Below, piece after piece: positions 39,172 to 64,000 of a stretch of 64,000 nt of DNA (positions are counted from its first letter, which is position 1; each line of letters begins with the position of its first letter). The notes beneath the pieces are model-generated. The model saw nothing but the letters and a program-made list of their open reading frames with translations. It was not told the origin of the DNA and made no database searches. Origin of the DNA: Candidatus Limnocylindria bacterium (GTDB taxonomy: Bacteria > Chloroflexota > Limnocylindria > QHBO01); NCBI GenBank assembly GCA_050692055.1, contig JBOGTC010000075.1, positions 4,438 to 68,437 on the forward strand, given 5' to 3'. Both the position numbers and the translations under genes were made by a program.

Positions 39172-39538
39172 GCCGACAATCAAGTACTGGTGCTGGAGGT
39201 GATGGCGGTGCGGTCGCCGTGCCATCTTCCCGCCTCCTGGGTGACCCAGCTCACACAGTGGCTCCCATGTCAAGCCGCGGGGCTGATCTCCGCGGGCATC
39301 GAGCACGCAGCGTTCGCTCAGCGGTGACGGCGCATCGGCGATCGAGCCGACCGACGGATCAACCCTCGTCGTACTCGAGAACAGATGAGTCATGGTCGCG
39401 AACCCTTCCGCCACACGGCTACCACTCGGCCGCCGATCGTATCAACGACCACCTCGATGACCCGATCGCCGAAGTGGTAGCGAGTGCGGATCTCGCGGGC
39501 AACATCGTGGTTGCCGCTCAGTAGACGGGACGCGGGCG

Positions 39539-40186: not shown

Positions 40187-40196
40187 GGCTATTGAG

Positions 40197-42557: not shown

Positions 42558-42567
42558 TCGGCTGCTC

Positions 42568-44223: not shown

Positions 44224-44262
44224 CGCTCCGCCTCACTGCCTATTCGGTCTGGTAGCGGGAAG

Positions 44263-45675
44263 TCACATGCCTGGGTTGTCCTCGAGGAACTGGTCGATCT
44301 CGCCCTGCGCGCGTTGATGCTCCCCTTCGACATCTGCACCGTGCAGCGCCGCCGAGACGGCTGCCTCCACGATCTCCGAGATGCGCTGGTAGCCGGCACG
44401 CGTCCCGTACCGTTGGTTGTTGATGTCTTCCTGTGCCTGGTCGAACGTGACATCCACGATCTCCCGGTCGGCCTCGGGAATCGACGAGTCGTCATACGGG
44501 GACGTGAACGATGGATAGCCGCTCTCGTCCGCGGGGTCAAAGGCGTGGAGCTCTTCACGGCGGGTCAGCAGACCCAGCTGGGTCTCTGCGTTGGCGTAGT
44601 GCTTTACCAGCTCCAGGGCGAGCTCCTTGCGCGGGCTTGTCTGGGGAATGGCGAAGCACTCGCCCACCGACTGGCCACCGGATCGGGGCAGGTCACCGCC
44701 CTTGCCCGGGATAATGGCAACCCGCACTGGATCGTCACCCAACACCGAAAGGTTTGGGTCGCGCGCCTGGTACCACAGGTGCTGGTAGTCGATCATCATC
44801 GCCGCATCGCCCGCCATGAAGACCTTCTTCGCCTCCACGTCGTAGATCCCCCATGGCGACTCGATGCTGTCCGCCGGCATGAAGGGCAGCAGGTCGATCA
44901 TGTCCTGCGTGGCCTGCATGGCCTCCGGGGTGTCGAAGTTGACGCTGCCATCGTCGCCGTAGAACTCGCCGCCGTTGAGGTGCAGCCAGACGCACCACTT
45001 CGGGAAGAGGTACAACGGCGCCCAGCCGTCGACGTAGCCGAACTGTGAGTTGGCCGTGAACTCTTGGGCCGCCGCCACGAATTCGTCGTACGTGGTGGGA
45101 ATGGCGATCCCCGCATCCTCGAACTTCTGCCGGTTGCAGAAGAGGACGTAGGTGTAGATGTTGCTCGGGCCGCCGTACCAGACGCCGCTGCTCGACTGCG
45201 CCGCCTCAATCGCCTCCCATCGCAGCTGCGACTCATCTGGCTGCTCGTAGCCGCTGATCTCGGTCAGTGGGGTGAGGAACTGCTCGTACTGATCCACCCA
45301 GGCGCGCCAGAGGTAGACGACGTCCCATGACTCGCCGCCGGCCTCGAAGGCTGGCGTGAGGACGGACGGCAATGGCCCGAAGGCTTCCCGAGTGAACTCG
45401 ACCGTTGCGTTGTGCTGCTGCTCGAACTCCGGTGTGATCATCGCGTAGTAGCCGGTGTGGTTTGCGAGCAGCACCCTCAGAGTGGTCGGCGGCCCCGCGG
45501 CTGTGCCGGTCGGGGATGCGGTCGTGGTGACACCGCAGGCGGCCAGGAGGGGACCAAGGCCCATGACCCCCACAACGCCTCCCCCAAGCTGGGCGCCGCG
45601 CTTGAGGAAACGACGGCGCGAGTACCGTGTCACGAGGGAACGCTGCCAGGGAGCACGCGGATCCTGTTCGTTCAT
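44263..45675 (-). CDS. ABC transporter substrate-binding protein (family 1) with Tat signal/lipobox
   Basis: SRRRFLKRGAQLGGGVVGVMGLGPLLAAC twin-arginine signal. Confidence 0.8.
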   Translation of the reverse strand: MNEQDPRAPWQRSLVTRYSRRRFLKRGAQLGGGVVGVMGLGPLLAACGVTTTASPTGTAAGPPTTLRVLLANHTGYYAMITPEFEQQHNATVEFTREAFGPLPSVLTPAFEAGGESWDVVYLWRAWVDQYEQFLTPLTEISGYEQPDESQLRWEAIEAAQSSSGVWYGGPSNIYTYVLFCNRQKFEDAGIAIPTTYDEFVAAAQEFTANSQFGYVDGWAPLYLFPKWCVWLHLNGGEFYGDDGSVNFDTPEAMQATQDMIDLLPFMPADSIESPWGIYDVEAKKVFMAGDAAMMIDYQHLWYQARDPNLSVLGDDPVRVAIIPGKGGDLPRSGGQSVGECFAIPQTSPRKELALELVKHYANAETQLGLLTRREELHAFDPADESGYPSFTSPYDDSSIPEADREIVDVTFDQAQEDINNQRYGTRAGYQRISEIVEAAVSAALHGADVEGEHQRAQGEIDQFLEDNPGM

Positions 45676-45728
45676 CCTTTTCTCTCCTCCGAAATCTGGC
45701 CGATGTGGACTGCGAGCGACCCTTGTCC

Positions 45729-46730
45729 TTACTTCATTGCCCCCTCCCCAATCCCACGAATCAGGTAGCGCTGCATGCCGAGCGCGAGGACCAGTACCGG
45801 GATCGAGGCGATCAGCCCAGCCGCGGACAGCTGCGGCTCGATCCGGTTGATCGGGTCCATGAGATTGACGATGCTGGGCGCGAGCATCGGCGTGCTGCTT
45901 ACCGACAGCACTCGGGATACGAGGAGCTCATTCCACGACAGGACAAACGCAAAGACGGCGGTTGTCGCGACGCTCGGCACGGTCAGGGGCAGGACCACGC
46001 GCCGGAGCGCGTCGAAGCGGCCCGCCCCATCGATCCGTGCCGCATGCTCGATCTCCGGTTCGACGCCCTCGAAGGCGCTGACGAGCAGCCACGTGACCAG
46101 CGGCGTGATCAGCGCCATGTGGCCCAGGATCATCCCCGGCAGCGTGTCGACCAATCCCACCGTCCGAAAGATCGCCACCAGTGGAACGAGCAGCGCAATG
46201 CCGGGAAGCATGTAGATCACCATCACGCTGGTGTAGACCGCCCGTCTCCCGGGGAACCGGAGTGATGCGATGGCATAGGCGCCGAGCAGCGCGATCAGGG
46301 TGGTCAGGGTTGCCGCCGTGGTCGACACGAGGAGGCTGTTTCGAAGCCCCGCCGACAGGTAGGCGATGTTGAAGAGACGTGCGTACTGGTCGAGGTTGGG
46401 TTGGGGTGGAATGGCATGCGGGCCGCTCAGAAGATCAACCGGGCGCTGCAGCGAGCCGAGGACTACCACGACGACGAACGGGACGGCGATGATGAGGAAG
46501 ACGAGGACGGCCAGCGTCGCCGCCACGACTCGGGACCCCATCCCGATGTGAAGCCCGTTGAGGCCCCGCCACACCAATGTCAGTCCGACCGCGGTCCCCA
46601 CGATCCAGGCCCAGAACGGAAACGGCCAATCGAAGACCAGCAGGCTCAGCTCGAGGACAGCGACGACGACGATGATCAACCCACCGGCCCAGGCGATCAG
46701 GCGCGAACGGCGACCGTCCGGTTGGCTCAT
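45729..46730 (-). CDS. ABC transporter permease (MalG-like)
   Basis: ATG overlapping upstream stop (ATGA). EAA loop HAARIDGAGRFDALRRVVLP. Confidence 0.8.
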   Translation of the reverse strand: MSQPDGRRSRLIAWAGGLIIVVVAVLELSLLVFDWPFPFWAWIVGTAVGLTLVWRGLNGLHIGMGSRVVAATLAVLVFLIIAVPFVVVVVLGSLQRPVDLLSGPHAIPPQPNLDQYARLFNIAYLSAGLRNSLLVSTTAATLTTLIALLGAYAIASLRFPGRRAVYTSVMVIYMLPGIALLVPLVAIFRTVGLVDTLPGMILGHMALITPLVTWLLVSAFEGVEPEIEHAARIDGAGRFDALRRVVLPLTVPSVATTAVFAFVLSWNELLVSRVLSVSSTPMLAPSIVNLMDPINRIEPQLSAAGLIASIPVLVLALGMQRYLIRGIGEGAMK

Positions 46731-47653
46731 GACAATCTCAGCGACCGGCCGCCGCGGGTGAGCACCAACCCGAACAGGACGATGATTCCCGCCACCACGT
46801 AGGCCAGCACCGCCCCGTAGCCCAGGTTCGTGTGCTCGAAGCTCGTCTTGAATGCGTAGAAGTACAGGTTGTAGGTCGAATAGGCGCCGGGGCCGCCACC
46901 GGTGAGGGCGAAGATGAGATCGAACAGCTGGACCGTGACAAGGAGCTGGACGATGAGCGCCACACCGATCGTGGGCAGGAGGAACGGAAGGATCACGTAG
47001 CGGAAGCGGCGCCAACTGTTCGCGCCGTCGATCTGCGCCGCGTGCACGGTCTCGCGCGGGAGGTACTGCAGGCTCACCAGGAAGATCAGGGCGAGCAGTG
47101 GGAACGTCTTCCAGACGTGGATTCCAACCAATGTGTAGAGGGTCCCGGGCACGCCGCTGAAGAACGACGGGGCCGTCTCCATCACACCCAGCTGCTGCAG
47201 CCAGGGTCCGAGCAGGCCACGGCGACCGTCAAGGAACCACTGGAACATCGCCGCCACCACGACCGGCGGCAGCGCCCACGGGATCAGCAGGCTTGCCCGG
47301 ACGAGCGTGCGGCCCGGGAACTGCTGGTTGAGGGCCAGCGCCACGCCCATGCCGATTGCGACGCCCAGCACGCACGAGGGAACGACGTACATCACGGTCT
47401 GTACCAGCGACTGGGCGAAGAGCGGATCGGCGGCCAGCCGCGCCCAGTTCGCAAGGCCCACCCACTCTCGCTGGCCTGCAGACCCCGCGGTCAGAGTGAG
47501 GGATATCGAGAACAGCAGCGGGTACAGGATCAGCGCCACGACCAACAGGACCGTCGGCGCCAGGAACATGCCGGCATAGGCATGGTTCTCCCGGCGGATC
47601 GGCAACCGGCTGATCCAGCTGCCTCGTCGCGCCGCCATCTCTGCGCCGCTCAT
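46727..47653 (-). CDS. ABC transporter permease (MalF-like)
   Basis: ATG overlapping ATPase stop (ATGA). EAA loop HAAQIDGANSWRRFRYVILP. Confidence 0.8.
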   Translation of the reverse strand: MSGAEMAARRGSWISRLPIRRENHAYAGMFLAPTVLLVVALILYPLLFSISLTLTAGSAGQREWVGLANWARLAADPLFAQSLVQTVMYVVPSCVLGVAIGMGVALALNQQFPGRTLVRASLLIPWALPPVVVAAMFQWFLDGRRGLLGPWLQQLGVMETAPSFFSGVPGTLYTLVGIHVWKTFPLLALIFLVSLQYLPRETVHAAQIDGANSWRRFRYVILPFLLPTIGVALIVQLLVTVQLFDLIFALTGGGPGAYSTYNLYFYAFKTSFEHTNLGYGAVLAYVVAGIIVLFGLVLTRGGRSLRLS

Positions 47654-52173: not shown

Positions 52174-53205
52174 TCAGCTACGCGGCGTCACCAACGGAAG
52201 CACCTCCTCGGCGAGGATGCGACGCGACTCTGCGGCGACGGCTGGATCCAGCCCTGGGAAATGGGCGCGAGCGACGTAGGTCCCGTGCTCGCTGAGTACC
52301 CCGGCGTACTCCAGGATTCGCTCCGTCACCTCCTCGGGCGTACCGGTGATCACCTGTCCGCGCAGCCGCTCGTCGTCCTGCGCAGACATCGCCGGCGGCC
52401 GCCTCCGCTCGCGTGACCCGCGCGCCGTGGCCATGTCGGCGTACTTCCAGCTCATGTACCAGGCGGCATCGCGCACGCGCTCCCAAGCGTCGCCGTCGCG
52501 CCAGGCGAAAGTGGGCCGATAAAGGTTGGCGGTGATCGCGTCCGGGTCACGGCCGGCCGCCAGCGCCTCCTCTTGGACCCACGACATGCGCCGCGCGAGC
52601 CCGTCGGGCGATGCGGGCCCGGCAAAGTAGCCGTCCGCCAGGCGACCCACGCGTCGGACGGCGGGCTCGGCACCCGCGCCGAGCCAGATCGGCGGCCCGC
52701 CGGCCCGTGCCGGCTTGGGCGTCACGTGGAGCCCGTCGTAGCGATAATGCCGTTCGTCGCCCGTGACGAGGCCGTCCGACCAGGCCTGTCGCAGCACCGC
52801 CAAATGGCCCTCGAGCCGGGAGCCGCGCTCGCGCATCGGTACGCCGAAGGCGTCGAACTCCTCCTCCCGCCAGCCGATCCCGAGCCCGAGGATGAGGCGC
52901 CCGCCGGAGATGAGGTCGACCGTCGCGGCGTCCTCCGCCAGATGAAGCGGATCAAACATCGGGGCCAGGAGCACCCCGGTCCCGAGCCGGATGCGCGAGG
53001 TCCGGGCCGCGATGGCGGCGAGCAGCGGCAGCTGCGAGGGCATGTAGCCGTCGTCGACGAAGTGGTGCTCACTGGTCCAGACCGAGTCGAACCCGGCCGC
53101 CTCGACCTCCACGGCCATCTCGATCGCCTCGCGGTAGAGCTCCACATCGGTGCGCGGGTCGTCCGGGTGGTGCTGCGCCGTCAGGTAGCCGTAGCCGAGT
53201 CGCAT
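52174..53205 (-). CDS. LLM-class flavin/F420-dependent oxidoreductase
   Basis: 343 aa luciferase-like TIM barrel (ILGLGIGWREEEF). Confidence 0.8.
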   Translation of the reverse strand: MRLGYGYLTAQHHPDDPRTDVELYREAIEMAVEVEAAGFDSVWTSEHHFVDDGYMPSQLPLLAAIAARTSRIRLGTGVLLAPMFDPLHLAEDAATVDLISGGRLILGLGIGWREEEFDAFGVPMRERGSRLEGHLAVLRQAWSDGLVTGDERHYRYDGLHVTPKPARAGGPPIWLGAGAEPAVRRVGRLADGYFAGPASPDGLARRMSWVQEEALAAGRDPDAITANLYRPTFAWRDGDAWERVRDAAWYMSWKYADMATARGSRERRRPPAMSAQDDERLRGQVITGTPEEVTERILEYAGVLSEHGTYVARAHFPGLDPAVAAESRRILAEEVLPLVTPRS

Positions 53206-53244
53206 CTCAACAGACTACCCGGCTCGACTGGCGCCGAGCATCCG

Positions 53245-54654
53245 GTGGCATGGCATGTAGCGGACGATGACCGACTCGACTATCTTCGGCGCACCGGCCC
53301 GAGCGACGACGAGGCCACGACAACGGAGATCCAGGCAGTCCTCGAGATCGACCCGGCGAGCGCCCGGGTCCACGAGCACGGCTGGCAGTCGTGGACGCCG
53401 GCGTCGACCTACGGAGTGAATGAGCGCCCGCATCGGCGTCGCACCGACCGGAACGCGGTCATGCACACCCACGGTGGATCAATGCCCCCGCGCGGCTTCA
53501 GCGCAGCCGGCCTCCTGGCCGTCGATCCAGGTAACGGAGCGCCGATCCACGTCTTCGCCGCCCGCGATGGTCGCCGTGCGGTCCCGACGACCAGCGCCGA
53601 GCGCTCCGGCGACCGGCTCGTCGTCCGCGCAGACGGTCCCGTCGACCACCTCGAGGATGCCGGGCCGGGCGGAATTGAGGGCGCGCTCGCGCGCTGGTCG
53701 GACAACGTGGTGGCCGGCATGCAGCTGCCTCCGCCGCGGCCGGCGCCGACCGCCTGGTGCTCGTGGTACCACTACTTCACAGAGGTGACCGAGGCCGACA
53801 TCGACGAGAACCTGGCGGCGATGGAGGAGCTCGACCTGCCGATCGAGGTCGTCCAGCTCGACGACGGCTACCAGGCCGAGGTGGGCGACTGGGTGACGCT
53901 CTCGGATCGATTCGCCTCGCTCGAGGCGATGGCGCGTCGCATCCACGCCTCCGGGCGTCGAGCCGGGATCTGGATCGCGCCCTTCCTCGTGGGCGAGCGG
54001 TCGGAGCTCGCTCGGCGCCATCCCGACTGGCTCGTGCAGAGCGGCACCGGACCAACAGATGCCGGCTGGAACTGGGACGAGGACCTGGCGGCGCTCGACG
54101 TCACGCACCCGGCGGCCGCCGCGTATCTTGCCGACGTACTCGGGACCATGCGCGGCTGGGGCTTCGATTTCTTCAAGGTGGACTTCGTCTACGCCGGCGC
54201 GCTCGACGGCCAACGCAACCAACCGATCGACGGCCTCGAAGCGTACCGCATCGGCATGGAGCTGATCCGAGAGGCGATCGGCGACGCCTACCTGCTCGGC
54301 TGCGGCGCGCCGATCCTGCCGAGCATCGGTCTCGTCGACGCCATGCGCGTCAGCCCCGACACGGCCCCGACCTACGAGCCCAGCGACGGGAGCCTGTCCG
54401 AGCCGGAGGTCAGCCTCGCAATCGTCACCGGTGTCGCGCGCGCCTTCCAGCACGGCCGCTTCTGGATCAACGACGCCGACTGCCTCATCGTGCGGCCCGA
54501 GGTCGAGCGCCGCGAGGAATGGGCGGACCACGTCGGCCGCTACAGCGGCCTCCGAAGCTCAAGCGACCGCCTGCGCTCACTCGATGCCTGGGGCCTCGAG
54601 ACGACCCGCCGCCTCCTGTCCGAACCGCCACCGCCAAGATTCGTCGACAGCTGA
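53245..54654 (+). CDS. Glycoside hydrolase, GH36/GH27-clan alpha-galactosidase-like
   Basis: CSWYHYF, QLDDGYQ, FFKVDFVYAG, GCGAPILPS motifs. GTG start at 53245 is tentative. The upstream part of the track ORF is antisense to the LLM gene. Confidence 0.6.
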   Translation: MAWHVADDDRLDYLRRTGPSDDEATTTEIQAVLEIDPASARVHEHGWQSWTPASTYGVNERPHRRRTDRNAVMHTHGGSMPPRGFSAAGLLAVDPGNGAPIHVFAARDGRRAVPTTSAERSGDRLVVRADGPVDHLEDAGPGGIEGALARWSDNVVAGMQLPPPRPAPTAWCSWYHYFTEVTEADIDENLAAMEELDLPIEVVQLDDGYQAEVGDWVTLSDRFASLEAMARRIHASGRRAGIWIAPFLVGERSELARRHPDWLVQSGTGPTDAGWNWDEDLAALDVTHPAAAAYLADVLGTMRGWGFDFFKVDFVYAGALDGQRNQPIDGLEAYRIGMELIREAIGDAYLLGCGAPILPSIGLVDAMRVSPDTAPTYEPSDGSLSEPEVSLAIVTGVARAFQHGRFWINDADCLIVRPEVERREEWADHVGRYSGLRSSSDRLRSLDAWGLETTRRLLSEPPPPRFVDS

Positions 54655-54710: not shown

Positions 54711-55040
54711 TCAGTCGTCAGCTCTCTTGCCGAACCGGCCGCCTGATCGCTTCCGGAGCCGGCTGATGCGTCGCTGGATGTCATGGCGCCTCGTTTCGGT
54801 CTCATCGCGATCGAGACCGATGACTTCCAGCTCGCCGTCGCGCATCCTCACGAGCACGACCGATCCCTCCTCGACGCCGGCCGGCAGTCGATCGAGCGGG
54901 ACGTGATGCTCGATCTCGTCATCGCCGACGAGTACGACCGCCAGCCCGTCGGTCAGGCGATCGACCACACCGCGCAGCGGATCATCAGCCGACACAGGCG
55001 ACCCCCTGGGCCTTGATGTCCGCCAAACGCGCGGAGGCAA
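54711..55040 (-). CDS. DUF3006-like small protein
   Basis: 109 aa. Start uncertain. Confidence 0.4.
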   Translation of the reverse strand: MPPRVWRTSRPRGSPVSADDPLRGVVDRLTDGLAVVLVGDDEIEHHVPLDRLPAGVEEGSVVLVRMRDGELEVIGLDRDETETRRHDIQRRISRLRKRSGGRFGKRADD

Positions 55041-56514
55041 TGCCGTTCACGCGGTCCAGGTCATCGACGGATCCGAACGGCCGCAGTGACGGAATCTCTG
55101 CGGCACGTACTGGTCCGATGTGGATGATCAGCTGCAGCTGCTCGTACGTCGCGGAGTTGATGTCCACCTGACCCGGGGCGCAGCCGCCCGTGACGGGTGG
55201 TGGCGGCGGAGGGGCGGCGATCGGCACCGGCGTGACGACCTGCGCCGGTGGCGTGCTGATCACCGGCGCTGACCGGGAGGTGGCAACGCTGTAGGTGGTC
55301 CCGTCGGTCCGGACGATGACCGTGCCATGCGTCGGCGTGCCGTAGATATCGATGCCTGCGCCCGCGAGCCTCGTGACCACCTCGTCGTGCGGGTGCCCGT
55401 ACTGATTGCCGGCGCTCGCCGAGTAGACCGCGACCTGGGGCCGCACCGCGGCCAGGAACTCCGCACTGGTCGAGGTGTTCGATCCGTGGTGGCCGACCTG
55501 GTAGACCGTCGAGGCCAAGCCGGAACCGTGACGCGAGACGATGGCAGCCTCGACATCGGCCTCGGCGTCTCCGGTGAAGAGGAAGGAGACCGAGCCGTAT
55601 GACACGCGAAGCGTGAGCATGTCGGTGTCGATATCACCGCTCAGGCTCGCCGGATGCAGGACTTGGACCGTGAGCGAGCCCACCGTGGTCGTCTGTCCGG
55701 CGCGTGGCTCCTCGTAGGCCGCGTCCGAGCGCTCGATCGCGGAGAGCGCCCGCGAGAACGTCTGCGTGGTGTGCGACGTTCCGGGCATCCAGACCTCTGC
55801 CACCGCGAGGCTGTCCAGCACGCTGTCCAGCTGGCCGATGTGGTCGGCATGCCCGTGGGTGATCGCCACGACGTCGAGCTCGGTCACGCCGGCGGCGGTC
55901 AGCAGCGGGACGACGTCATTGCGATCATGCCGTCCGGCGTCTATGAGCAGCGTCGCGTCGGGAGCCACCAGGAGCGTCGCATCGCCCTGCCCAACGTCCA
56001 GGAAGTGCACGACGAGCTCGCCGCTGGTAGCCGTTACCGCCTCGCTCGGCTCAGATTCCGAAGGCGCGGGCGAAGGCGTGATAGTGGCACGAGGAGTGGG
56101 TGCCGCGGTCGGCTTCGAAGTCGGCGTAGGCGAAGAGAAGGATTGGCTCGGGCTCGAGGACTGGGACGGCTCAGTGAGTGCAGGAGCGGAGTGCGCCGGG
56201 GCCGACGCCGATTGGTCAGACGGGGCCCTGATTCCGTAGCTAGCGACGGCGAGCGGCAGGGAGATTGCCAGCAGCAGCAGCGCTGCAAAGCGCAGCGGCG
56301 TGGCGCGCAGTGCAAACGGCACGAACCCGAGGAACGGATGACGGAGCAGTCGATCGACGACTGCCGGTCGTCGCCATGCCACCAGGAGGACGCCGACCGC
56401 CGCGAGGAGCAAGAGCGGGCCGATCAAGACGAGCACCGCCAACCCGACCATCAGGCCGATGACGAGGCCTGTCCGGGCAAGCGGCGACGACGGTAGGCGC
56501 GGGAGACGAGCCAC
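54985..56514 (-). CDS. Membrane-anchored ComEC/Rec2-type MBL-fold hydrolase fused to C-terminal ComEA-like helix-hairpin-helix DNA-binding domain
   Basis: Two N-terminal TM helices, Pro/Ser/Thr-rich linker, MBL motifs (HFLDVGQGDA, ITHGHADHIG, GHHGS), then DINSATYEQLQLIIHIGPVRAAEI...VNGIASARLADIKAQG (helix-hairpin-helix). Confidence 0.65.
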   Translation of the reverse strand: MARLPRLPSSPLARTGLVIGLMVGLAVLVLIGPLLLLAAVGVLLVAWRRPAVVDRLLRHPFLGFVPFALRATPLRFAALLLLAISLPLAVASYGIRAPSDQSASAPAHSAPALTEPSQSSSPSQSFSSPTPTSKPTAAPTPRATITPSPAPSESEPSEAVTATSGELVVHFLDVGQGDATLLVAPDATLLIDAGRHDRNDVVPLLTAAGVTELDVVAITHGHADHIGQLDSVLDSLAVAEVWMPGTSHTTQTFSRALSAIERSDAAYEEPRAGQTTTVGSLTVQVLHPASLSGDIDTDMLTLRVSYGSVSFLFTGDAEADVEAAIVSRHGSGLASTVYQVGHHGSNTSTSAEFLAAVRPQVAVYSASAGNQYGHPHDEVVTRLAGAGIDIYGTPTHGTVIVRTDGTTYSVATSRSAPVISTPPAQVVTPVPIAAPPPPPPVTGGCAPGQVDINSATYEQLQLIIHIGPVRAAEIPSLRPFGSVDDLDRVNGIASARLADIKAQGVACVG

Positions 56515-56589: not shown

Positions 56590-57516
56590 TCAGCCGCGAA
56601 ACAGCGTGTCGCCGTGCCACTCGAGGTACTCGGCCGAGGGCGGCGGAGCCGGGGGCAACGGCGAACGGACCGATGCACCCTCGAGGGCGTAGTAGTCGCG
56701 GCCGTTCTCGAACTCCTCGCGGATCCGGCGGCTGACGCGCAGCTCCAGCGACGGCGTGACTGTCACGTAGCCGGCGTCGAACAAGGCGTGGAGGTCCTTG
56801 CGCAGCAGGATCCCGTTCTCGAGCCGATGCGGACCGAGCTCGGCATACGGGCGGATGTGGGCGGCGTCGAGCACCGGCAGCGTCCGCTCACCGGTGACGG
56901 CGCATCTGCGCTGATAGGCGTCGGTCACGAGCAGGCGGAAGGCGCCTTGGCCAAGCCGACGCTGCATCAGCATCGGCGCCCCGTACCGATCCTCTGCGAT
57001 CGCGTGATCGGCCGGAACCCGGTTGGCCAGCGCCAGCTGCACCCGGCTCCACAGGAGCGCCCCCTCACCGATGTCGCTGTCGAACGTCTTGCCCTGCACG
57101 ATGTTCGGCGCCCAGTCGGCAGGCGGCGCGATCCAATCGGCCTGGTCGAGGAAGAACGGCTCGACCAGTACCAGGCAGCCGACCTGGTCGGCGTGGATGT
57201 CAATCTTCGTGCGCCGATATCGGCCGATGCGCGCAACCATCTCCTCGAAGCTGCCCGCGCCGTTCTCGATCCCGAACGTGTCCCACGTCATCCGCACCGG
57301 CAGCGCCGAGTAATGCGCGAAGAACCCACCGCCCACGATCCAGCCACCGTGCGACGCATGGAGCTTGAAGAGGAAGAGCGCGCCAGGCTCCAGCGTCACC
57401 GGCGGCCGCCCGGCGCTCGGCTGCCAGAAGTTGACCTCCGACAGCTCCGGCCTGGCCGAGAGAAACCGGAACCAGTCGTAGTCGGTGATTCCGACCCAGT
57501 AACGCATGGCCCTCAA
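56590..57516 (-). CDS. HNH endonuclease with ~150-aa N-terminal uncharacterised domain (candidate modification-dependent/Type IV restriction endonuclease)
   Basis: C-terminal HNH motif CAVTGERTLPVLDAAHIRPYAELGPHRLENGILLRKDLHALFD. N-terminal domain (MRYWVGITDYDWFRFL...GGWIVGGGFFAHYS) not assigned. Confidence 0.6.
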   Translation of the reverse strand: MRAMRYWVGITDYDWFRFLSARPELSEVNFWQPSAGRPPVTLEPGALFLFKLHASHGGWIVGGGFFAHYSALPVRMTWDTFGIENGAGSFEEMVARIGRYRRTKIDIHADQVGCLVLVEPFFLDQADWIAPPADWAPNIVQGKTFDSDIGEGALLWSRVQLALANRVPADHAIAEDRYGAPMLMQRRLGQGAFRLLVTDAYQRRCAVTGERTLPVLDAAHIRPYAELGPHRLENGILLRKDLHALFDAGYVTVTPSLELRVSRRIREEFENGRDYYALEGASVRSPLPPAPPPSAEYLEWHGDTLFRG

Positions 57517-57542
57517 GTATCAGTGAATTTGCCTCGACACCG

Positions 57543-58109
57543 ATGGTAGCCTTGCCGCCAAGCAAGCCACCAATGCCTTGCTCGAGGGGACCAATGCACG
57601 AGCTGCCCGATAGACCATTCGCCCGATACGCCAACGGCGGAGCGGAGCTGCTCGGCATCCCGGCGTGGGGTGACGGGACGGCTCGCGCAGGGTACGGCCG
57701 ACCTGTCTTCGCCGAATGCGGATACCAGTGCGTGTACTGCAGCTTCGACATGGGCGCGCCGTACGAGAACTGGCTGAACCTGTCTGTCGACCACGTCGTC
57801 CCGGAGCACCTCGTGAAGGCCGCCTGGCCGCGCGAGTGGGTGCTCGACCGGATCAACCTGGTCACGTGCTGCCGAGCGTGCAACGAGTTCCTGAATGGCT
57901 ATCGCGTGATCGACCCGACGCCGCCTGCCACCTTCGCCGGCTTCATCGCCGTTCGTGACCGAGTCTTCGACGAGAAGCTGGCTCACGCCCTGAAGCGGCA
58001 CGCCGTCGAACGCGAGCGGTATGTCGCGGGTCGACCTGCCGGCCCGACCGACGTCCAGGAGCAGGTCGCCGAACATGACGTCCAACGCGTACGAGCTGTC
58101 TATGGGTAG
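57543..58109 (+). CDS. HNH endonuclease (McrA-like zinc-finger HNH)
   Basis: CGYQCVYCSFDM...SVDHVVPEHLV...LVTCCRACNEF. Confidence 0.6.
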   Translation: MVALPPSKPPMPCSRGPMHELPDRPFARYANGGAELLGIPAWGDGTARAGYGRPVFAECGYQCVYCSFDMGAPYENWLNLSVDHVVPEHLVKAAWPREWVLDRINLVTCCRACNEFLNGYRVIDPTPPATFAGFIAVRDRVFDEKLAHALKRHAVERERYVAGRPAGPTDVQEQVAEHDVQRVRAVYG

Positions 58110-58199
58110 CTTCACCGAAGAGTCCGGCAAGTGAGTGGGGCCGGGCGACCCTGCGACGACGCGCCGCAGGTACCACGAGCCGGATCGCGCGGATGAGTC

Positions 58200-59051
58200 A
58201 TGGCTAGACCAGCGACGATCCGCATCTTCCTGGCGGATGGAACTCCTGAAGGCCTGCGGATCATTGAGAAGTCACTCTGGACCGGTCGCGGGTTCGACTT
58301 TGCGCGCGCGGAGTGGACGAGGGTTCGGTCGAGGGACGATTTTGCTAAGCCAGGCGTGTACGTGCTCTCCGGGCCGGCCGATGACGGAACCACGATCATC
58401 TACGTCGGAGAGGCGGATGAGCTGCGATCCCGCCTCAACCTCCACCACGGCTCGCTCGACTTCTGGACACGAGCGATCGCATTCGTCAGCAAGGACGAGA
58501 ACCTGAACAAGGCTGGCGTCAAGTACCTGGAGTCGCGCCTTGTCGCGCTGGCAACCGATGCAAAGCGGGCGGCTTTGAAGAACGGAAACGTACCCGGCGC
58601 TCCGTTCATGTCGGAAGCCGACCGCGCCGAAGCGGAAGGCTTCCTGGAGGAGATGCTACCGATCTATCCCCTCATGGGCATCACGGCATTCGAGGTCGTT
58701 CAGGTCTCCGCTGCTGACCCTCAATCTGTCCGGCTGCATCTCAATCGCGCCGGAATCGTCGCCTATGGGCGGGATATCGCTGAGGGCTTTGTTGTCGAAG
58801 CAGGGTCAGCCGCGAGAAGCGGCGAAACCAAGGGCTTGCATCAATATGTCCGCACACTGAGATCAAAGCTGTTGGCGGACGGCGTCCTCGTCGCCGATGG
58901 CCCACAGCTCCGCGTCGCGTCCGACTACGTGTTCGGTTCACCCTCCACGGCCGCGGCCGTGATTCTCGGCAGCCCGGCAAACGGCCGGACCGAGTGGACC
59001 GACGAGCAAGGCCGCATGTTGAAGACGATCCAGGAGAAGGCGGCGGAATGA
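58200..59051 (+). CDS. GIY-YIG nuclease domain + DUF4357 protein
   Basis: GVYVLSGPADDGTTIIYVGEADELRSRLNLH (GIY-YIG-like) N-terminus and C-terminal region resembling DUF4357. Family assignment from memory. Confidence 0.55.
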   Translation: MARPATIRIFLADGTPEGLRIIEKSLWTGRGFDFARAEWTRVRSRDDFAKPGVYVLSGPADDGTTIIYVGEADELRSRLNLHHGSLDFWTRAIAFVSKDENLNKAGVKYLESRLVALATDAKRAALKNGNVPGAPFMSEADRAEAEGFLEEMLPIYPLMGITAFEVVQVSAADPQSVRLHLNRAGIVAYGRDIAEGFVVEAGSAARSGETKGLHQYVRTLRSKLLADGVLVADGPQLRVASDYVFGSPSTAAAVILGSPANGRTEWTDEQGRMLKTIQEKAAE

Positions 59052-59115
59052 TCACAACCCATCGGCATCTGCCGTACAGCTTCGAGCGCCCCCCGGAAGT
59101 CGGCGGTTGGCTAGC

Positions 59116-59823
59116 CGATGACGGAGCTGCAGACCAACGTCCTCTACTACGGCGACAACCTCGAGATCCTGCGCCGATACTCCCGGACGCCTCGGTCGAC
59201 CTGATCTACCTCGACGCGCCGTTCAACTCGAACCGCGACTGCTCGCCTTCGAGGACACCTGGCACTGGGGCCCATCGGCCGAGTCGACCTACCGATACCT
59301 GACGAACACGGTCCACCACCAGGGCCGCGTCCCGGACAAGGTCAGCACCATCATCGCGGCGCTGCGCTCAGGGATCGGCTCGAATCAGATGATGGCCTAC
59401 CTCGTCGAGATGGCCGTCCGGCTCGTCGAGCTCCATCGCGTCCTGAAGCCGACCGGCTCGCTCTACCTCCACTGCGACCCTACCGCAAGCCACTACCTAA
59501 AGCTCATTCTCGACGGCGTCTTCGGGCCGCTCAGCTTCCGCAACGAGATCAGCTGGAAGCGATTCAGTGGCAAGAACGATCCCAAGCGGTATGGCCGAAA
59601 TCACGACGTCATCCTCTTCTACAGCAGCCGGACGCATGATCGAGCGGATCACGCAGAAGGTGCGTCACGCAGATGGATACACCGAAATGGAAACACGCGT
59701 AGACCGGGATATCTTGGTGAAGCCGCGGAAGCGGAGGTCGCGACGCCAGAAGGGCACCTCACGATGAGGCTTCACGGCTGGAACAAGTGTGGAGCGGGAG
59801 GAGATCCGGTGTCCAGTTGGTAA
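59116..59823 (+). pseudogene. Degraded N4/N6 DNA methyltransferase (PF01555-type): two frameshifts, internal deletion, mutated DPPF motif, truncated C-terminus
   Basis: My three-frame reading: frame B MTELQTNVLYYGDNLEILRRY. After a -1 shift, LPDASVDLIYLDAPFNSNRD (DAPF instead of DPPF/Y). After a second break, AFEDTWHWG...MMAYLVEMAVRLVELHRVLKPTGSLYLHCDPTASHYLKLILDGVFGPLSFRNEISWKRFSGKNDPKRYGRNHDVILFYS, then non-homologous tail. Track shows it split into ORFs 58994..59302 and 59389..59823. Confidence 0.6.
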
Positions 59824-59848
59824 TGCCGATCGGCGAGGCAAGGACGAC

Positions 59849-60559
59849 TCAGGCGAGAGCACTAGCGCGGGTCGCTGATGTGAGGTACAGATCTCGGAGC
59901 CTATCTCGCAGTTCGATGCCGCCGTTGGTGATGCAGAGTCTGAGGTGCAGATCTTCCGGAAACTCGGCTACGTGACTCCCAGTCCGAGCCGGCCTGGCCA
60001 CATTCCTTGGCCACGTGCGCATGATCCGGTTAACGGCCGGCTGTATGGCAGGGTCCGAGAATGCAAGTCTTTCGAGCTGCAATAGGTACCACATCGACTC
60101 CAGGTTTCGACTCGCCTCGACGGCCGCTTGCCATGGAGCCGCAAACAAGAGGGCACCGTAATCCATTAGATCGCAGAAGGCCTCGACGCAGTTGCGCGAA
60201 GTGACGCTCAGGTCCAGAAGGCTCGTCGTGTGAAAGAAGTCGTTTCTCCGCGTTCGCCGTATGCGCATCTCGGCCAACAGTGAGGCCACCTCAGTCGAAA
60301 CTTCTGGTCGCTTGGCGTCGATGGCTCCTTGGACATCGGCCTGCACCTCAGCGTAGTTCTTGAATCGCTCCCCGTTTCGCGTCGCCACTGCGTCACGCCA
60401 GTTGCGATCATCGGCGAGTAGGAAGAGCTTGGAGGTCAGCTCGGTGTAGTCATCGCAAAGGATGTAGGCGGTGCGGAGATACTGCCCGCCGGATCTTCCT
60501 GTGAAGTACACCTCAACGCCGGAGCAGATCTCGTCCACCAGATACTTGAGCTGGGTCAC
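59849..60559 (-). CDS. Hypothetical protein with HEPN-like Rx4H motif (RNDFFH), translationally coupled to hsdS; candidate abortive-infection/RNase effector
   Basis: 236 aa. ATG overlaps hsdS stop (ATGA). Lower GC than flanks. Rx4H is the minimal HEPN signature. No further assignment. Confidence 0.4.
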   Translation of the reverse strand: MTQLKYLVDEICSGVEVYFTGRSGGQYLRTAYILCDDYTELTSKLFLLADDRNWRDAVATRNGERFKNYAEVQADVQGAIDAKRPEVSTEVASLLAEMRIRRTRRNDFFHTTSLLDLSVTSRNCVEAFCDLMDYGALLFAAPWQAAVEASRNLESMWYLLQLERLAFSDPAIQPAVNRIMRTWPRNVARPARTGSHVAEFPEDLHLRLCITNGGIELRDRLRDLYLTSATRASALA

Positions 60560-61199
60560 GGGGCGGCTCTAGCTTCGAGGGCAGACAAGAACGTTTGGCG
60601 GGCCTCTTGCCACTCCACGTATGCCTCCGCCATCAAGCGTGCAGCCTCTTGCCTGCGCGCATCGACGCCAGAGGCGATGTCCTCCTGCATGGCGCGGGAT
60701 GGCAAGGGAATGTCCAACGAGCGCACGTCGGTTGCCGAGATCCGAGGGTGCGTGTTCCCGGTCATCATGTGCCGCGTCTGCGCGACGACGAGGGATGATC
60801 GCAGTACCGCGGCGAGATAGCGGCCTGACACGTGGCTCCCCGGTCGGATCCGCAGAACGGCGAACTCCGGGGAGCAGACCCCGGGCTGGTCGGCGAGGTG
60901 CACCTTATTGAGGTAGGGGCGCAATCGACAGAAAAGGATGTCGCCCCGCTCAAAAGCAAGACCAGACGGGGGTACTGGCTCATCCCCTCCAGCGACGAGG
61001 TGCCCGGTCCCGGATTCGACGTTGGCCAAGCCGATGTATCGGGTGCTGTCCGAGGTGGTCGAAACCACGCGCACCAGGTCTGCGACTTCGACGAGTGGGA
61101 CGACGCGGACTCCTCGAGCGTGCGCAGAGCGCATGGACTCGACTGCTGTTAGTCGTTGGGGGTGGAAGAACGGCGCGTCGAGCCGGTTTGACCGTGCGA
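60556..61199 (-). pseudogene. hsdS: Type I restriction-modification specificity subunit HsdS, C-terminal half (TRD2 + C-terminal conserved helix), separated from its N-terminal half by IS insertion
   Basis: GVRVVPLVEVADLVRV...PEFAVLRIRPG...LDIPLPSRAMQEDIASGVDARRQEAARLMAEAYVEWQEAR typical of HsdS. Confidence 0.6.
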
Positions 61200-61204
61200 C
61201 TAGG

Positions 61205-62237
61205 TGTCGTTCCCACTTAGATCGTTGACAGACTGAGAGCCCTCGTGCTCGGTTTGGGGTTGTTGAAGCTCCACACCGAGGGAGGGCTCTCATGCTCCAT
61301 CGTACCGCCAAGCTGACGCCGTATGGGAGGCGGCTACTGGTCGAGCGGGTCCTGGTCGAGGGGTGGTCGCCGGCGATCGCGGCTGAAACGCTCGGCGTGA
61401 GCCGAGCCACCGCCTACAAGTGGCTGCGCCGCTACCGAGCCGAGGGCGTGGCCGGGCTCGAGGATCGCTCGGCACGACCGCAGCGCCGGCCACGTTCGCT
61501 GCCGGAGCGCGAGGTGCGCCGCATCCTCCGCCTTCGTCGTCGGCTGCGGGTCGGGCCGCACCGGCTCGGCCCGCTGCTCGGCCACCCGCGCTCGACGGTC
61601 TACGGCGTGCTGCGCCGTCATGGCGTGAGCCGCTTGGCCCACGCTGATCGTCTGACCGGCGTGCCGCTGCGCTACGTGCGCGAGCGGCCCGGAGAACTGA
61701 TCCACGTCGACGTCAAGCGGCTGGGTCGGGTACCCGACGGCGGTGGCCACCGCATGCTCGGCCCGGGCGCACGTCGCGACCGAGGCGCGGGGTACGACTA
61801 CCTGCACGTCGCCATCGACGACGCCACCCGGCTCGCTTTCATCGGCGTCCATGCCGACGAGCGGGCCGCCACCACGGTGCGCTTCCTGCGCGACGCGGTC
61901 GCCTTCTTCGCCGACCACGGCATCCGGGTCGAGCGGGTCATGACCGACAACGCCATGACCTACACCCAGTCGCGTCAGCTGGCAGCGCTGTTCGCGGCCT
62001 CAGGCATTCGCCACCTGCGCACCCGTCCGCGGCGGCCACAGACGAATGGCAAGGCCGAGCGTTTCATCGGCACCCTGCAGCGCGAGTGGGCCTACGCCCG
62101 TCTGTTCCGCTCGAACGCCGAACGCCTGGCGTCGCTGCCGCGCTGGCTCGAGACCTACAATCGACGGCGTCCCCATGCCGCGCTGGGTGGCCTCAGTCCG
62201 CTGACCGTGCTTGTCAACAAGCTCGGTGGGAACGACA
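61205..62237 (+). mobile_element. IS481-family insertion sequence (1033 bp) with ~27-bp imperfect terminal inverted repeats, flanked by CTAGG duplication
   Basis: Left end gTGTCGTTCCCACttagatcGTTGACA. Right end TGTCAACaagctcgGTGGGAACGACAg. Flanks aCTAGG|...|gCTAGG consistent with the NCTAGN 6-bp target duplication known for IS481. Confidence 0.75.
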
Positions 62238-62242
62238 GCTAG
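61292..62242 (+). CDS. IS481-family transposase (DDE, rve integrase core)
   Basis: 316 aa. N-terminal HTH, HVDVKRL...D...E rve-type catalytic core, IS481-typical LHRTAKLTPYGR N-terminus. Confidence 0.85.
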   Translation: MLHRTAKLTPYGRRLLVERVLVEGWSPAIAAETLGVSRATAYKWLRRYRAEGVAGLEDRSARPQRRPRSLPEREVRRILRLRRRLRVGPHRLGPLLGHPRSTVYGVLRRHGVSRLAHADRLTGVPLRYVRERPGELIHVDVKRLGRVPDGGGHRMLGPGARRDRGAGYDYLHVAIDDATRLAFIGVHADERAATTVRFLRDAVAFFADHGIRVERVMTDNAMTYTQSRQLAALFAASGIRHLRTRPRRPQTNGKAERFIGTLQREWAYARLFRSNAERLASLPRWLETYNRRRPHAALGGLSPLTVLVNKLGGNDS

Positions 62243-62243
62243 G

Positions 62244-62995
62244 CAGGCGGCCACGCGGTAGCCGCGCAGCCTGTGAGGCGGTGTGTCTATAACACCCAGG
62301 TGCGCGTCGACTAGATGGTCCACTTCGGTCATGACACGCGCTGCGATTGTCCGCTTGTCGTCACGCCGCAAGCGCGCGTCCCGATAGGCATCCGCGAGAC
62401 GGCGCTGTTCCGCCACGGATGGCAGCGGGACGACGAGCGAGCGCAGCTCCGACACATTGATGTTGGCCATCCCGGCTATTCGCCGGCTCACCAGACGAAG
62501 CTGCTCGCGTCCGCCCGTGTTGACGAAAGCCGAGAGATAGTCCGGCTCAGCCTTGGTTCGATCGACCTGCAGTCGAAGGAGATACGAGGCGAAGACCCAC
62601 TCACCATCAAGATCGAAGACGGCACTCTTCCCAACGAGCTCCTGAGAATTCGTCCGGTTCACGAGAACATCGCCCCGCGAGAGGACAAATCGCTCGAGGA
62701 CGGAATCGTCAATGCGAACGAACTTCACGTCCGAGACGTCCATGCCGTCGTCGCGAAGGTTATTCATACGAAGGATCGGAATGCCGGGTCTATGATTGCT
62801 GGCGCGCACGGAAAGCCCGTACTGAATGCGGTGAACCAGTGCTCCCAGTTCGAGGACCGGGAATCGCCACCTGTTGCGGCCGGCCGGAGTCCGCTGCGAT
62901 AACACGAATGCCGGATCAGCACGGGTGCGTAGAGAGCGGGCGGGAACACGGAAGGCGACCGGCTGACGTAGAGGACTACTAGCCGGCAACAGCAT
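62244..62995 (-). pseudogene. hsdS: HsdS N-terminal half (TRD1 + central conserved region), disrupted by the IS481 element
   Basis: RFPVLELGALVHRIQYGLSVRAS...VVPLPSVAEQRRLADAYRDARL typical of HsdS. 5' boundary uncertain. Confidence 0.55.
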
Positions 62996-64000
62996 GACCG
63001 TGGTAGAGATCGGCAATGGCCGGCAAGTCGTTGTCCGTCTCGCGGCCTGTAGCGTCGTACCCAACGAAGTCTGCGATGGCCATGAATACGTCCTCGTCCT
63101 CTTCCGCTCGCTCCGCCTCGTCGCGGCGCCGGACAAAGACGAAACTCGACTTCACGCCAGCCCCAAAATGCGAGAAGGCCGTAGCGGGCAGGCTCACAAC
63201 CGCGAGTACTTGGAAGCGCTCGAGAAGGAAGTCACGGACGTACTGGAGTGATGCATTCGTCAAGATTCCGTCCGGTAGGATGATTCCCGCGCGTCCTGTG
63301 CCCGGCTTCAGGAACTGCCACACCCGCTCGATGAAGAGCACCTCGGTCCGCTGTGATTTTCGCGGAGTGTCGCGCCCGGACTTGGACGGCATCCTGCCCA
63401 GTTCGAAAGTCGAGAGATGGGGTCGCTGCGCCAGGGTTACCTGGGCGCCAAAGGGAGGATTGGTGAGGATTAGGTCGAAGCGACCCGGCGAGAGACCGGG
63501 GTTCTTCTGCTGCAGCTGGCTGAGTGGAAGCAAGGCATCCGAACCAACTATGTTCGAGTGACCGTCGTCGTGAATGATCATGTTCATCTTCGCCACGCGG
63601 GTCAGCTCGTCGTTTATCTCGACCCCATATAGGTTGCGCGTCCCAAAGTCGTGCCAGTGCCGAAAATGCTGAGGCGTATCGGCTTGGTGGTACGCGTCCG
63701 CCTCTTTCCTCACCGCATCCAAGGCGTACAGCAGAAAGCCCCCTGAGCCACATGCTGGGTCCAAAACGATGTCATCGCTGGTTGGCTGCAGGATGTCGAT
63801 CGCGAACTGGATCAGGTCACGCGGCGTGAAGTACTGCCCGAAGTCGCCCTTGAAGAAGTTGTCGACGAACTGCTCGAATGCAACGCCTTTGATGTCCAGG
63901 TCCGTTTCCGATAGATTGACGCTCTCGAGGTGGGAGACGACGTTCCTCAGGGTTGCATCGTCGATCTTGATCGTATCGGTGAAGACGTCGGGTTCTCGCT
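62979..64000 (-). CDS. hsdM: Type I restriction-modification DNA methyltransferase subunit HsdM (3' part; gene continues past window end)
   Basis: NPPFG motif IV, LDPACGSGGFL motif I. My translation of 63765-64000 continues in frame (…FTPRDLIQFAIDILQPTSDDIVLDPACGSGG), so the track ORF start at 63764 is an artefact. Confidence 0.8.
   Translation of the reverse strand, partial: REPDVFTDTIKIDDATLRNVVSHLESVNLSETDLDIKGVAFEQFVDNFFKGDFGQYFTPRDLIQFAIDILQPTSDDIVLDPACGSGGFLLYALDAVRKEADAYHQADTPQHFRHWHDFGTRNLYGVEINDELTRVAKMNMIIHDDGHSNIVGSDALLPLSQLQQKNPGLSPGRFDLILTNPPFGAQVTLAQRPHLSTFELGRMPSKSGRDTPRKSQRTEVLFIERVWQFLKPGTGRAGIILPDGILTNASLQYVRDFLLERFQVLAVVSLPATAFSHFGAGVKSSFVFVRRRDEAERAEEDEDVFMAIADFVGYDATGRETDNDLPAIADLYHGHAVAG

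Follow-up and report, generated by a model that had tools for sequence, protein, structure and literature searches.

The window analysed here is a 64,000-nucleotide stretch from a Candidatus Limnocylindria (Chloroflexota) genome. Its last 7.4 kb (56590-64000) is a genuine bacterial defence island, flanked by a ComEC-like gene on one side and a class II ribonucleotide reductase gene on the other. The GC content is 0.639 in the island and 0.686 elsewhere in the window (standard deviation of the latter's 1-kb windows, 0.024), which bears out the lower GC reported in a preliminary description of this DNA, and the genes lie where that description placed them. The island consists of five independent modules: a PUA-like/HNH protein, a small HNH protein, a GIY-YIG/DUF4357 protein, the dead remnant of a methyltransferase (MTase)-Mrr fusion and a three-gene cassette, RM-S-H. 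Overall the island is ordinary; the RM-S-H cassette inside it is uncatalogued. The features are as follows, in window coordinates.

56590..57507, minus strand: PUA-like (ASCH/EVE-like) + HNH_2 nuclease, 305 aa (Pfam HNH_2 at 3e-12)
57594..58109 (or from 57543), plus strand: zinc-finger HNH nuclease, 171 aa (188 aa from ATG 57543), without a partner gene (motif; Pfam HNH sub-threshold)
58200..59051, plus strand: GIY-YIG + DUF4357 nuclease, 283 aa (PADLOC PDC-S14 306.6 bits, E 4e-92; Pfam DUF4357 6e-19)
59124..59628, plus strand: beta-class N6/N4 DNA methyltransferase pseudogene (tblastn, three frames)
59849..60559, minus strand: H, third gene of RM-S-H, a 236-aa protein of predicted HEPN fold (predicted structure and motif)
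60556..61204, minus strand: C-terminal half of S (TRD2-CR2), in frame with a 69-codon leader that starts inside the insertion sequence (IS) (PADLOC Specificity_I and Specificity_II)
61205..62238, plus strand: IS481-family element, transposase at 61292-62242 (NCBIfam transpos_IS481 316.6 bits, cut-off 224)
62239..62995, minus strand: N-terminal half of S (TRD1-CR1, 252 aa), fused to ~79 IS-encoded codons (PADLOC Specificity_I 180 bits)
62979..64000, minus strand: RM, C-terminal 339 aa (gamma-class N6-adenine methyltransferase domain) of a 610-aa R-M fusion, running off the window at 64000

All three nuclease genes, the PUA-like/HNH_2 fusion, the small HNH and the GIY-YIG/DUF4357 gene, have intact motifs. 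In the 305-aa protein, whose open reading frame (ORF) has an alternative TTG start at 57516, a PUA-superfamily reader precedes an HNH_2 catalytic domain. Length and domain order are those of the VcaM4I-type EVE-HNH Type IV endonucleases and the HNH region aligns with VcaM4I (6yex), although the N-terminal domain is nearest to ASCH and not to EVE proper. On sequence grounds we class it as a predicted modification-dependent (Type IV-like) endonuclease, as the preliminary description had done. The GIY-YIG/DUF4357 assignment made there holds as well. The protein is a full-length match to PADLOC PDC-S14, a candidate family for which we found no experimental validation. Its Pfam GIY-YIG match is sub-threshold; across 78 homologues, residues Y54, Y68, R78, H82, E111 and N128 show conservation of at least 95%. 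At 80 homologue loci the gene is often near gamma-class MTase/S genes, with no fixed partner. Fusions of DUF4357 to the Type IV enzymes GmrSD and McrB are also known (PMC4619093, PMC11090510). These two proteins are most likely single-protein modification-sensing (Type IV-like) restriction enzymes; the earlier suggestion that such nucleases need no methyltransferase fits their architectures, a PUA-like reader joined to HNH as in VcaM4I and DUF4357 as found in Type IV fusions. The small HNH protein has an intact Cys4/DH/N motif read from the sequence (C63-x2-C66, D83-H84, N105, C110-x2-C113-N114), a sub-threshold Pfam HNH match (E 0.016) and weak PADLOC matches to PtuB and PDC-M01B (E 1e-4 to 6e-3). 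Searches of PDB, plasmid, phage and viral-contig sequences found no homologues. Of the 'McrA-like HNH' described earlier, the HNH motif stands and the likeness to McrA is not demonstrated. Septu PtuB was rejected as an identity, given that there is no adjacent PtuA ATPase gene (the neighbours are the PUA-HNH and GIY-YIG genes) and that the PtuB E-value is at least 2e-4.

The methyltransferase sequence at 59124-59628 is a true relic of an MTase-Mrr fusion, multiply frameshifted as had been noted. In tblastn with ~550-aa conceptual homologues (queries L025 and L026) it matches residues 4-190 only, in frames 3, 2 and 1, with an internal deletion of ~15 aa and DAPF in place of DPPF; the C-terminal ~360 aa are gone, and neither motif I nor a nuclease domain was found with these queries. 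Its intact-length relatives are self-contained MTase-Mrr_cat/NA-iREase1 fusions, and a piece of that MTase lies near only 1 of 80 GIY-YIG homologue loci, which speaks against the proposed pairing of a dead methyltransferase with the GIY-YIG nuclease. The island does not show an intact nuclease beside its dead cognate methylase, and the combination of intact nucleases with inactivated methylation, earlier considered unusual, is not.

The methyltransferase gene of the cassette, previously called hsdM, does reach the end of the window, and the full RM gene was read from an identical contig (L001:5749-7581), where the N-terminal PD-(D/E)xK nuclease domain is located beyond the window. The complete protein has Pfam HSDR_N_2 and N6_Mtase domains in a single polypeptide, the Type IIB arrangement, with methyltransferase motifs DPACGSGGF and NPPF intact. 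In phmmer the best match is RM.BsaXI at 138 bits, the best HsdM reaching 84. With a profile built from 15 homologues the scores are 222.8 bits for RM.BsaXI (8w0p) and 122.6 for the best Type I HsdM, and the alignment to RM.BsaXI spans the nuclease domain. In this profile alignment the BsaXI tetrad E73/D90/E105/K107, shown to be essential in that enzyme (PMC11997821), corresponds to E78/D91/E108/K110 of RM; D91, E108 and K110 do not vary among the 15 homologues, and conservation of E78 is 90% or more. Judged by these homologies, RM joins a PD-(D/E)xK endonuclease to an N6-adenine methyltransferase in the manner of Type IIB enzymes and is homologous to RM.BsaXI.

Intact versions, which the preliminary description had proposed to look for in close relatives of the island, are found for the cassette in other taxa, Nostoc and Tepidisphaeraceae among them. 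RM, S and H follow one another on the same strand in all 14 distinct loci with enough upstream DNA, all from metagenome bins, in which mis-assembly is possible for any single locus. The taxa comprise Chloroflexota, Planctomycetota, Acidobacteriota, Armatimonadota, Verrucomicrobiota, Actinomycetota, Cyanobacteria, Abditibacteriota, Schekmanbacteria and others (about ten phyla). Identities in these loci are 56-66% for RM, 22-45% for S and 40-60% for H (40-62% for H over about ten phyla); those of RM and H co-vary (r = 0.92). The spread for S is what TRDs would lead one to expect. In most loci the stop codon of S and the start codon of H share 4 nt. Plasmid-borne RM-like genes of more distant relationship occur without H, and what the 14 loci show is dependence of H on RM-S. 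RM-S-H is a conserved three-gene unit of many phyla, apparently undescribed.

The absence of hsdR from the window was correctly noted: there is no ORF of at least 700 aa, and of the three ORFs of 600 aa or more, the two tested have no match to a helicase/translocase (HsdR-type) domain, one being a glycosyl hydrolase and the other having no Pfam match at all. The third (52573-54654) corresponds in position to a Glyco_hydro_31/Melibiase gene annotated on L001. Beyond the window end hsdR is absent too, the gene upstream of RM on L001 being the class II ribonucleotide reductase, and no HsdR-like large ORF lies within ~8 kb at the homologous loci. Of the Type I components, a two-TRD HsdS is present, and an HsdR subunit and an hsdM equivalog are not. 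A decaying canonical Type I system (hsdM and hsdS) without hsdR, followed by chance by an unrelated HEPN gene, would agree with the missing hsdR, with the two-TRD layout of S and with the labels of the best PADLOC models, MTase_I and Specificity_I. However, RM has a conserved nuclease domain of its own and is nearer to Type IIB RM.BsaXI than to any HsdM, it scores 47.1 bits against TIGR00497 hsdM (cut-off 242.75), a ribonucleotide reductase gene occupies the upstream position, and all 14 homologous loci, in unrelated phyla, lack hsdR and retain H. This explanation is already contradicted and we consider it highly improbable; the Type I label falls with it, and the absence of hsdR should not be read as a loss. 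Decay of the island, as had been suggested, is seen in two places, the frameshifted and truncated beta-class relic and the IS-split S gene. More generally, 'N-6 DNA methylase' genes with an HSDR_N_2 domain should not be annotated as hsdR-less Type I.

The third gene, H, had been described as a HEPN-motif ORF coupled to hsdS. The motif and the coupling are confirmed, the GTG start of H overlapping the TGA stop of S, but H is more than merely coupled, being a fixed member of the conserved cassette. The motif R105-N-D-F-F-H110 (Rx4-6H) is invariant in 24 family members, and the predicted structure has the four-helix up-and-down HEPN fold, with a HEPN-type helical domain and C-terminal helices throughout and no ATPase match. 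On predicted structure and motif, H is a HEPN protein. Sequence profiles of HEPN families gave no significant match, only HEPN_Cthe2314 at an E-value of at least 0.023 in 8 of the 24 members; there was no PDB sequence match, and no model in Pfam (2025), NCBIfam (2026) or PADLOC v2 scored above threshold. Every source that names the protein calls it a 'hypothetical protein'.

That hsdS is split by an IS481 element, as first described, is well supported. The element has an equivalog DDE transposase with Pfam domains rve, rve_3 and LZ_Tnp_IS481, terminal inverted repeats (TGTCGTTCCCAC/GTGGGAACGACA) and a CTAG-containing target duplication, CTAGG at 61200-61204 and 62239-62243, all characteristic of the family. 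The window has one copy of it, with 99.9% identity to that in L001. Excision of 1039 bp joins the halves in frame and gives a single open S frame of 466 aa, which can be aligned over its full length with S from homologous loci. The ATG start of S at 62995 overlaps the end of RM, and the tblastn alignment of the N-terminal half to homologous S genes begins at residue 2. The insertion is clean and reversible, and this recent event has most likely turned the cassette off in this genome. It could instead have re-programmed the system: dimers of the surviving TRD1-CR1 half of S would guide RM to a new bipartite site, a palindromic one, and translation of H would be maintained by the TRD2-CR2 ORF that starts in the IS. 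The insertion point of the IS is exactly the TRD1-CR1/TRD2 boundary, each half is still an ORF, and a BsaXI S of TRD1-CR1 alone is active with RM, with the new specificity AC N5 GT (PMC9159934). Nevertheless, the half-S here is burdened with ~79 foreign residues encoded by the IS, an enzyme with both cutting and methylating activity would, on abruptly changing its specificity, leave unmethylated host sites open to attack, and a promoter scan found nothing. We regard re-programming as quite improbable and inactivation as the better reading.

The best explanation, to which we assign a probability of roughly 60%, is that the Candidatus Limnocylindria genome horizontally acquired an island of five modules, among them an RM-S-H cassette with H as RNase back-up that the IS has inactivated here. 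By analogy with BsaXI and BcgI, we infer that RM and the two-TRD S would form an (RM)2S enzyme, which would methylate and cut at a bipartite site without an HsdR motor. H would be translated in step with S and, as a putative RNase, be held in check or recruited by the RM-S complex, so that abortive infection would form a second layer once restriction has been blocked or overwhelmed, following PrrC/EcoprrI logic. The literature describes R-M operons with linked HEPN genes as well as the PrrC model (PMC3710099), and a HEPN defence gene has been validated with an Rx4-6H mutant (bioRxiv 10.1101/2024.01.29.577857). Our best guess is that H is a PrrC-like RNase serving as a second line of defence. 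PrrC-type control predicts that loss of the R-M partner could unleash the RNase, and here H is intact beside a broken S. An extra assumption is needed to account for this, either that the IS has a polar effect on expression of H or that H requires positive activation. In MADS, deleting only the S-like mad5 seemed to be lethal (bioRxiv 10.1101/2023.03.30.534895), a hint that S loss can be toxic in related systems.

H could also be a structural or regulatory subunit instead of an RNase effector, one that aids cutting by the 610-aa RM in the manner of the BsaXI knob/paddle, or that times restriction against methylation. Strict synteny, together with translational coupling to S, points to a stoichiometric subunit, RM lacks the ~300-aa C-terminal extension whose knob/paddle is required for cleavage by the 916-aa BsaXI RM (PMC11997821), and catalytically inactive, ligand-binding-only HEPN domains are known (PMC3710099). 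We hold this role to be unlikely, if less so than re-programming by the IS. Returning to H as RNase back-up, a more specific and tentative proposal, for which we would not claim even odds, is that RM-S-H is a distinct undescribed defence system in which a Type IIB-like restriction-modification enzyme has the HEPN RNase as its third, stoichiometric subunit, with S gating both DNA restriction/methylation and RNA-targeting abortive infection. If H is an active RNase under RM-S control, the cassette would represent compact three-gene layered immunity on a Type IIB chassis, in which abortive infection backs up restriction, and would be tractable for studying how R-M enzymes signal their own failure.

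Among known systems, the Type IIB enzymes BsaXI and BcgI likewise have an N-terminal PD-(D/E)xK nuclease and a gamma-class N6-adenine methyltransferase in one RM protein and a separate HsdS-like TRD1-CR1-TRD2-CR2 subunit, without an ATP-dependent motor. The cassette differs in adding a third, strictly linked HEPN gene after S; to our knowledge, no accessory subunit has been reported for Type IIB enzymes. Compared with BsaXI, RM is shorter, without the knob/paddle extension, and of low identity; cutting on both sides of the site would be a prediction from the homology. MADS provides the best NCBIfam match of RM, MAD2 (314 bits), and S matches MAD5 weakly. However, the MAD2 score is far under the cut-off of 720, RM-S-H is a three-gene and not an eight-gene unit, and MAD6-8, treated as mandatory by the authors of MADS (bioRxiv 10.1101/2023.03.30.534895), are absent among the island proteins; membership was rejected.

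In PrrC-EcoprrI, a Type Ic R-M locus harbours a HEPN anticodon nuclease. H, a protein of only about 225 aa, lacks the N-terminal ABC-ATPase domain of PrrC and has no Pfam HEPN family above threshold, and its identification as a PrrC/RloC anticodon nuclease was rejected (236 aa in this island, no ATPase match). Its partner is a Type IIB-like RM-S pair and not hsdMSR, and it follows S with overlapping stop and start instead of lying between hsd genes. As in PrrC-EcoprrI and other R-M-linked HEPN clades (Anantharaman et al. 2013), a HEPN protein with Rx4-6H is tied to R-M genes, and the proposed logic is alike, with DNA restriction first and an RNase as back-up (PMC3710099).

The island at the end of the window (56590-64000) is real but ordinary, and the gene series that the preliminary description had listed is present, as checked with an ORF map and three profile libraries (Pfam, PADLOC and NCBIfam). 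Its GC content is 0.639, against 0.686 in the remaining window, with the HEPN and RM (restriction-modification fusion) genes at 0.591 and the insertion sequence (IS) at 0.703. The decay that had been claimed for it is real but narrower than described. A promoter and terminator scan across the island was uninformative, and no second copy of RM, S (specificity subunit), H (predicted HEPN-fold protein) or the IS was found within the window. The features are as follows.

56590-57507, minus strand: 305-aa PUA-HNH protein with a C-terminal HNH_2 domain
57543/57594-58109, plus strand: small HNH protein with a complete zinc-finger HNH motif (C63xxC66, D83-H84, N105, C110xxC113-N114)
58200-59051, plus strand: GIY-YIG/DUF4357 protein, full-length match to the PADLOC candidate PDC-S14 (306 bits)
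about 59124-59628, plus strand: N6_N4 methyltransferase fragments, from three-frame translation and tblastn with conceptual full-length relatives
59849-60559, minus strand: H, 236-aa ORF with no match in any of the three profile libraries
60556-61204 and 62239-62995, minus strand: S-subunit fragments with an IS481-family element between them
61205-62238: IS481-family element with ends TGTCGTTCCCAC and GTGGGAACGACA and CTAGG flanking both sides
62979-64000, minus strand: gamma-class N6 methyltransferase gene (RM), running past the window end

The island's left neighbour (54985-56514, minus strand) encodes a ComEC-like protein of 509 aa that combines a metallo-beta-lactamase domain with a helix-hairpin-helix at its C-terminus; a DUF3006 gene comes after it on L001 (GCA_975322505.1), an identical contig that carries sequence beyond the window end, and a defence role is not obvious. 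Elsewhere in the window, about 39000-47000 is another lower-GC stretch (about 0.65 versus 0.69) that includes a 618-aa ORF without a Pfam match (43192-45048), and AT skew is strongly positive around 46000-47500.

Inactivated catalytic residues, which had been named as one observation that would count against the earlier reading, were not found in any of the three nuclease motifs. For the 305-aa protein, AF2 modelled the HNH half with low confidence, and interpretation is limited to the N-domain. Database support for the small HNH protein is sub-threshold only (Pfam HNH, E 0.016; weak PADLOC PtuB matches), which leaves its earlier 'McrA-like' label unsupported, and no relatives were detectable in PDB, plasmids, phages or viral contigs. 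Judged by its sequence, it appears to be an HNH nuclease that the searches assign to no family. The GIY-YIG protein retains Y54, Y68, R78, H82, E111 and N128, each at least 95% conserved among 78 homologues. DUF4357 also occurs fused to GmrSD and McrB (PMC4619093, PMC11090510), which points towards a Type IV-like reading of this protein. This nuclease and the 305-aa PUA-HNH protein, both solitary here, also co-occur outside the window: at one metagenome locus (L037:4001-5850), the gene directly after a GIY-YIG/DUF4357 homologue encodes a PUA-HNH homologue with 39% identity.

What survives of the dead methyltransferase is only residues 4-190 of a protein of about 550 aa, spread over three frames; DAPF replaces DPPF in motif IV, a deletion of about 15 residues follows it, and the SAM-binding motif I and all downstream parts are lost. 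Its nearest relatives run on into a Mrr_cat/NA-iREase1 nuclease domain, which argues that the ancestral gene was a self-contained methyltransferase-nuclease fusion and not a partner of the GIY-YIG nuclease. The closest intact-length relatives are at these homologous loci.

L025:8001-9643: methyltransferase-Mrr_cat/NA-iREase1 fusion
L026 and L027:8001-9660: methyltransferase-Mrr_cat/NA-iREase1 fusions

We therefore reject a broken Type II pair of GIY-YIG nuclease and methyltransferase, given that the methyltransferase relatives have different neighbours and that only one of 80 loci with GIY-YIG homologues (L028) holds a fragment of the methyltransferase, located on the other side, upstream. With this, the apparent paradox of an intact nuclease beside its dead cognate methylase disappears. 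The fusions of L025, L026 and L027 are themselves frameshift-split near the same 'APGG' position, and the split form of protein P0140 was found on 11 contigs; this would represent recurrent decay, or else a shift that is programmed or phase-variable.

The preliminary description took the S and RM genes for a Type I locus, with no hsdR in the window. Read from L001, the complete RM has 610 aa and an N-terminal HSDR_N_2 PD-(D/E)xK domain. Its best PDB relative is RM.BsaXI (138 bits; the top-scoring Type I HsdM reaches 84); with a profile of 15 RM homologues, RM.BsaXI scores 222.8 bits versus 122.6, and the alignment now reaches the nuclease domain. RM.BsaXI is the restriction-modification fusion subunit of a Type IIB enzyme, in which E73, D90, E105 and K107 are essential by mutagenesis (PMC11997821). 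These residues align with E78, D91, E108 and K110 of RM, of which the last three are invariant and E78 is nearly so. Against the hsdM equivalog model RM scores far under the cut-off, and its best NCBIfam match, the MADS MAD2 model, is at less than half its cut-off; MADS membership is ruled out by this score and by missing genes. An hsdR just outside the window can also be rejected, given that the next gene upstream of RM on L001 encodes an intein-containing class II ribonucleotide reductase. The 'missing hsdR' was thus a misreading. With a BsaXI-like RM that has its own nuclease domain and falls so far under the hsdM model, the absence of hsdR is the native state of a Type IIB-like RM and S enzyme and not a loss. 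The reductase (L001:1226-5425, just past 64000 of the window) is B12-dependent, has 1,399 aa and bears a LAGLIDADG homing-endonuclease domain in its intein.

Cassette context was drawn from three looked-up contigs and 17 genome loci. RM (56-66% identity), then S (22-45%), then H (40-60%) follow one another on one strand in all 14 distinct loci with enough upstream DNA, and the divergence of RM and H co-varies (r = 0.92). In most loci, the window included (GTGA), the S stop codon shares 4 nt with the start of H; beyond the coupling of a HEPN gene to hsdS noted earlier, H is the third member of a conserved cassette. No HsdR-like large ORF flanks the homologous cassettes. Among 5.8 billion sequences H has 219 relatives; none has a name other than 'hypothetical', and their identity across phyla is 50-62%. 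An H-family profile search of 1.84 billion cluster representatives found only 123. There were no H homologues in plasmid and viral-contig collections, and more distant, plasmid-borne HSDR_N_2-methyltransferase genes are without H. At the sequence level H has no significant link to known HEPN families or PDB entries.

In some H-family members (P0093, P0096 and P0107) the hairpin that follows helix 2 contains a Cys-rich insert of 22 residues (…CxxPTCGR…; columns about 63-84 of the family alignment A1), which could be a zinc knuckle. Proteins P0310-P0332 and similar ones (315-335 aa), possibly a sister family, match only the central part of the H-family profile (positions about 53-183); they contain no Pfam domain and have an additional N-terminal region of about 115 aa. 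In a Tepidisphaeraceae locus (L005:10715-12313) a 532-aa NucS_C-domain gene lies 45 nt after H in the same orientation, and it was not seen in the other loci.

Disrupted cassettes were seen in 5 of 16 examined (window 60556-62995, L003, L018, L023 and L024): the window and L003 have a split S, L024 has a split S together with an H interrupted by about 550 bp, L018 has fragmented RM and S genes, and L023 has a frameshifted H. These disruptions may reflect a fitness cost of the system or errors in metagenome bins. Nostoc sp. JBALFL010000213 (L006) and Tepidisphaeraceae JASGJJ010000002 (L005) are examples of intact cassettes. In the window, removal of 1,039 bp restores one open S frame of 466 aa that aligns end to end with homologues. 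The IS has one copy in the window, is 99.9% identical in L001, and a second assembly (L002) breaks within it. The insertion looks recent, and intact RM and H here therefore tell little about selection. It lies at the TRD1-CR1/TRD2 junction, and each half is still an ORF, the first comprising TRD1-CR1 and about 79 IS-encoded codons and the second a 69-codon IS-derived leader and TRD2-CR2, with the coupling to H retained. BsaXI is active with a TRD1-CR1-only S subunit and gains a new palindromic specificity (PMC9159934), and by analogy the IS could possibly have re-programmed the cassette rather than inactivating it; inactivation is the most likely outcome.

The cassette combines a fusion whose nuclease and methylase motifs are conserved, a variable subunit with two TRDs and a predicted HEPN fold with an invariant catalytic-type motif, in fixed order and translationally coupled. 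RM and S would form an (RM)2S enzyme, judging from their homology with BsaXI and BcgI. The best-supported idea, to which we give a probability of roughly 0.35, is that H would be an RNase silenced by, or recruited to, this complex and freed upon restriction failure, as PrrC with EcoprrI. It seems unlikely that H instead has a purely structural or regulatory role in the RM-S enzyme, as a subunit that is not an RNase. An RNase held by restriction-modification and let go when restriction fails is the general proposal for HEPN genes linked to such systems (PMC3710099), and elsewhere a HEPN defence gene has been validated whose function requires the histidine of its Rx4-6H motif (bioRxiv 10.1101/2024.01.29.577857). 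The RM-S-HEPN cassette was not found in Pfam, NCBIfam, PADLOC or the searched literature; it is the worthwhile result here, and it joins two known themes, Type IIB restriction-modification and restriction-modification-linked HEPN proteins.
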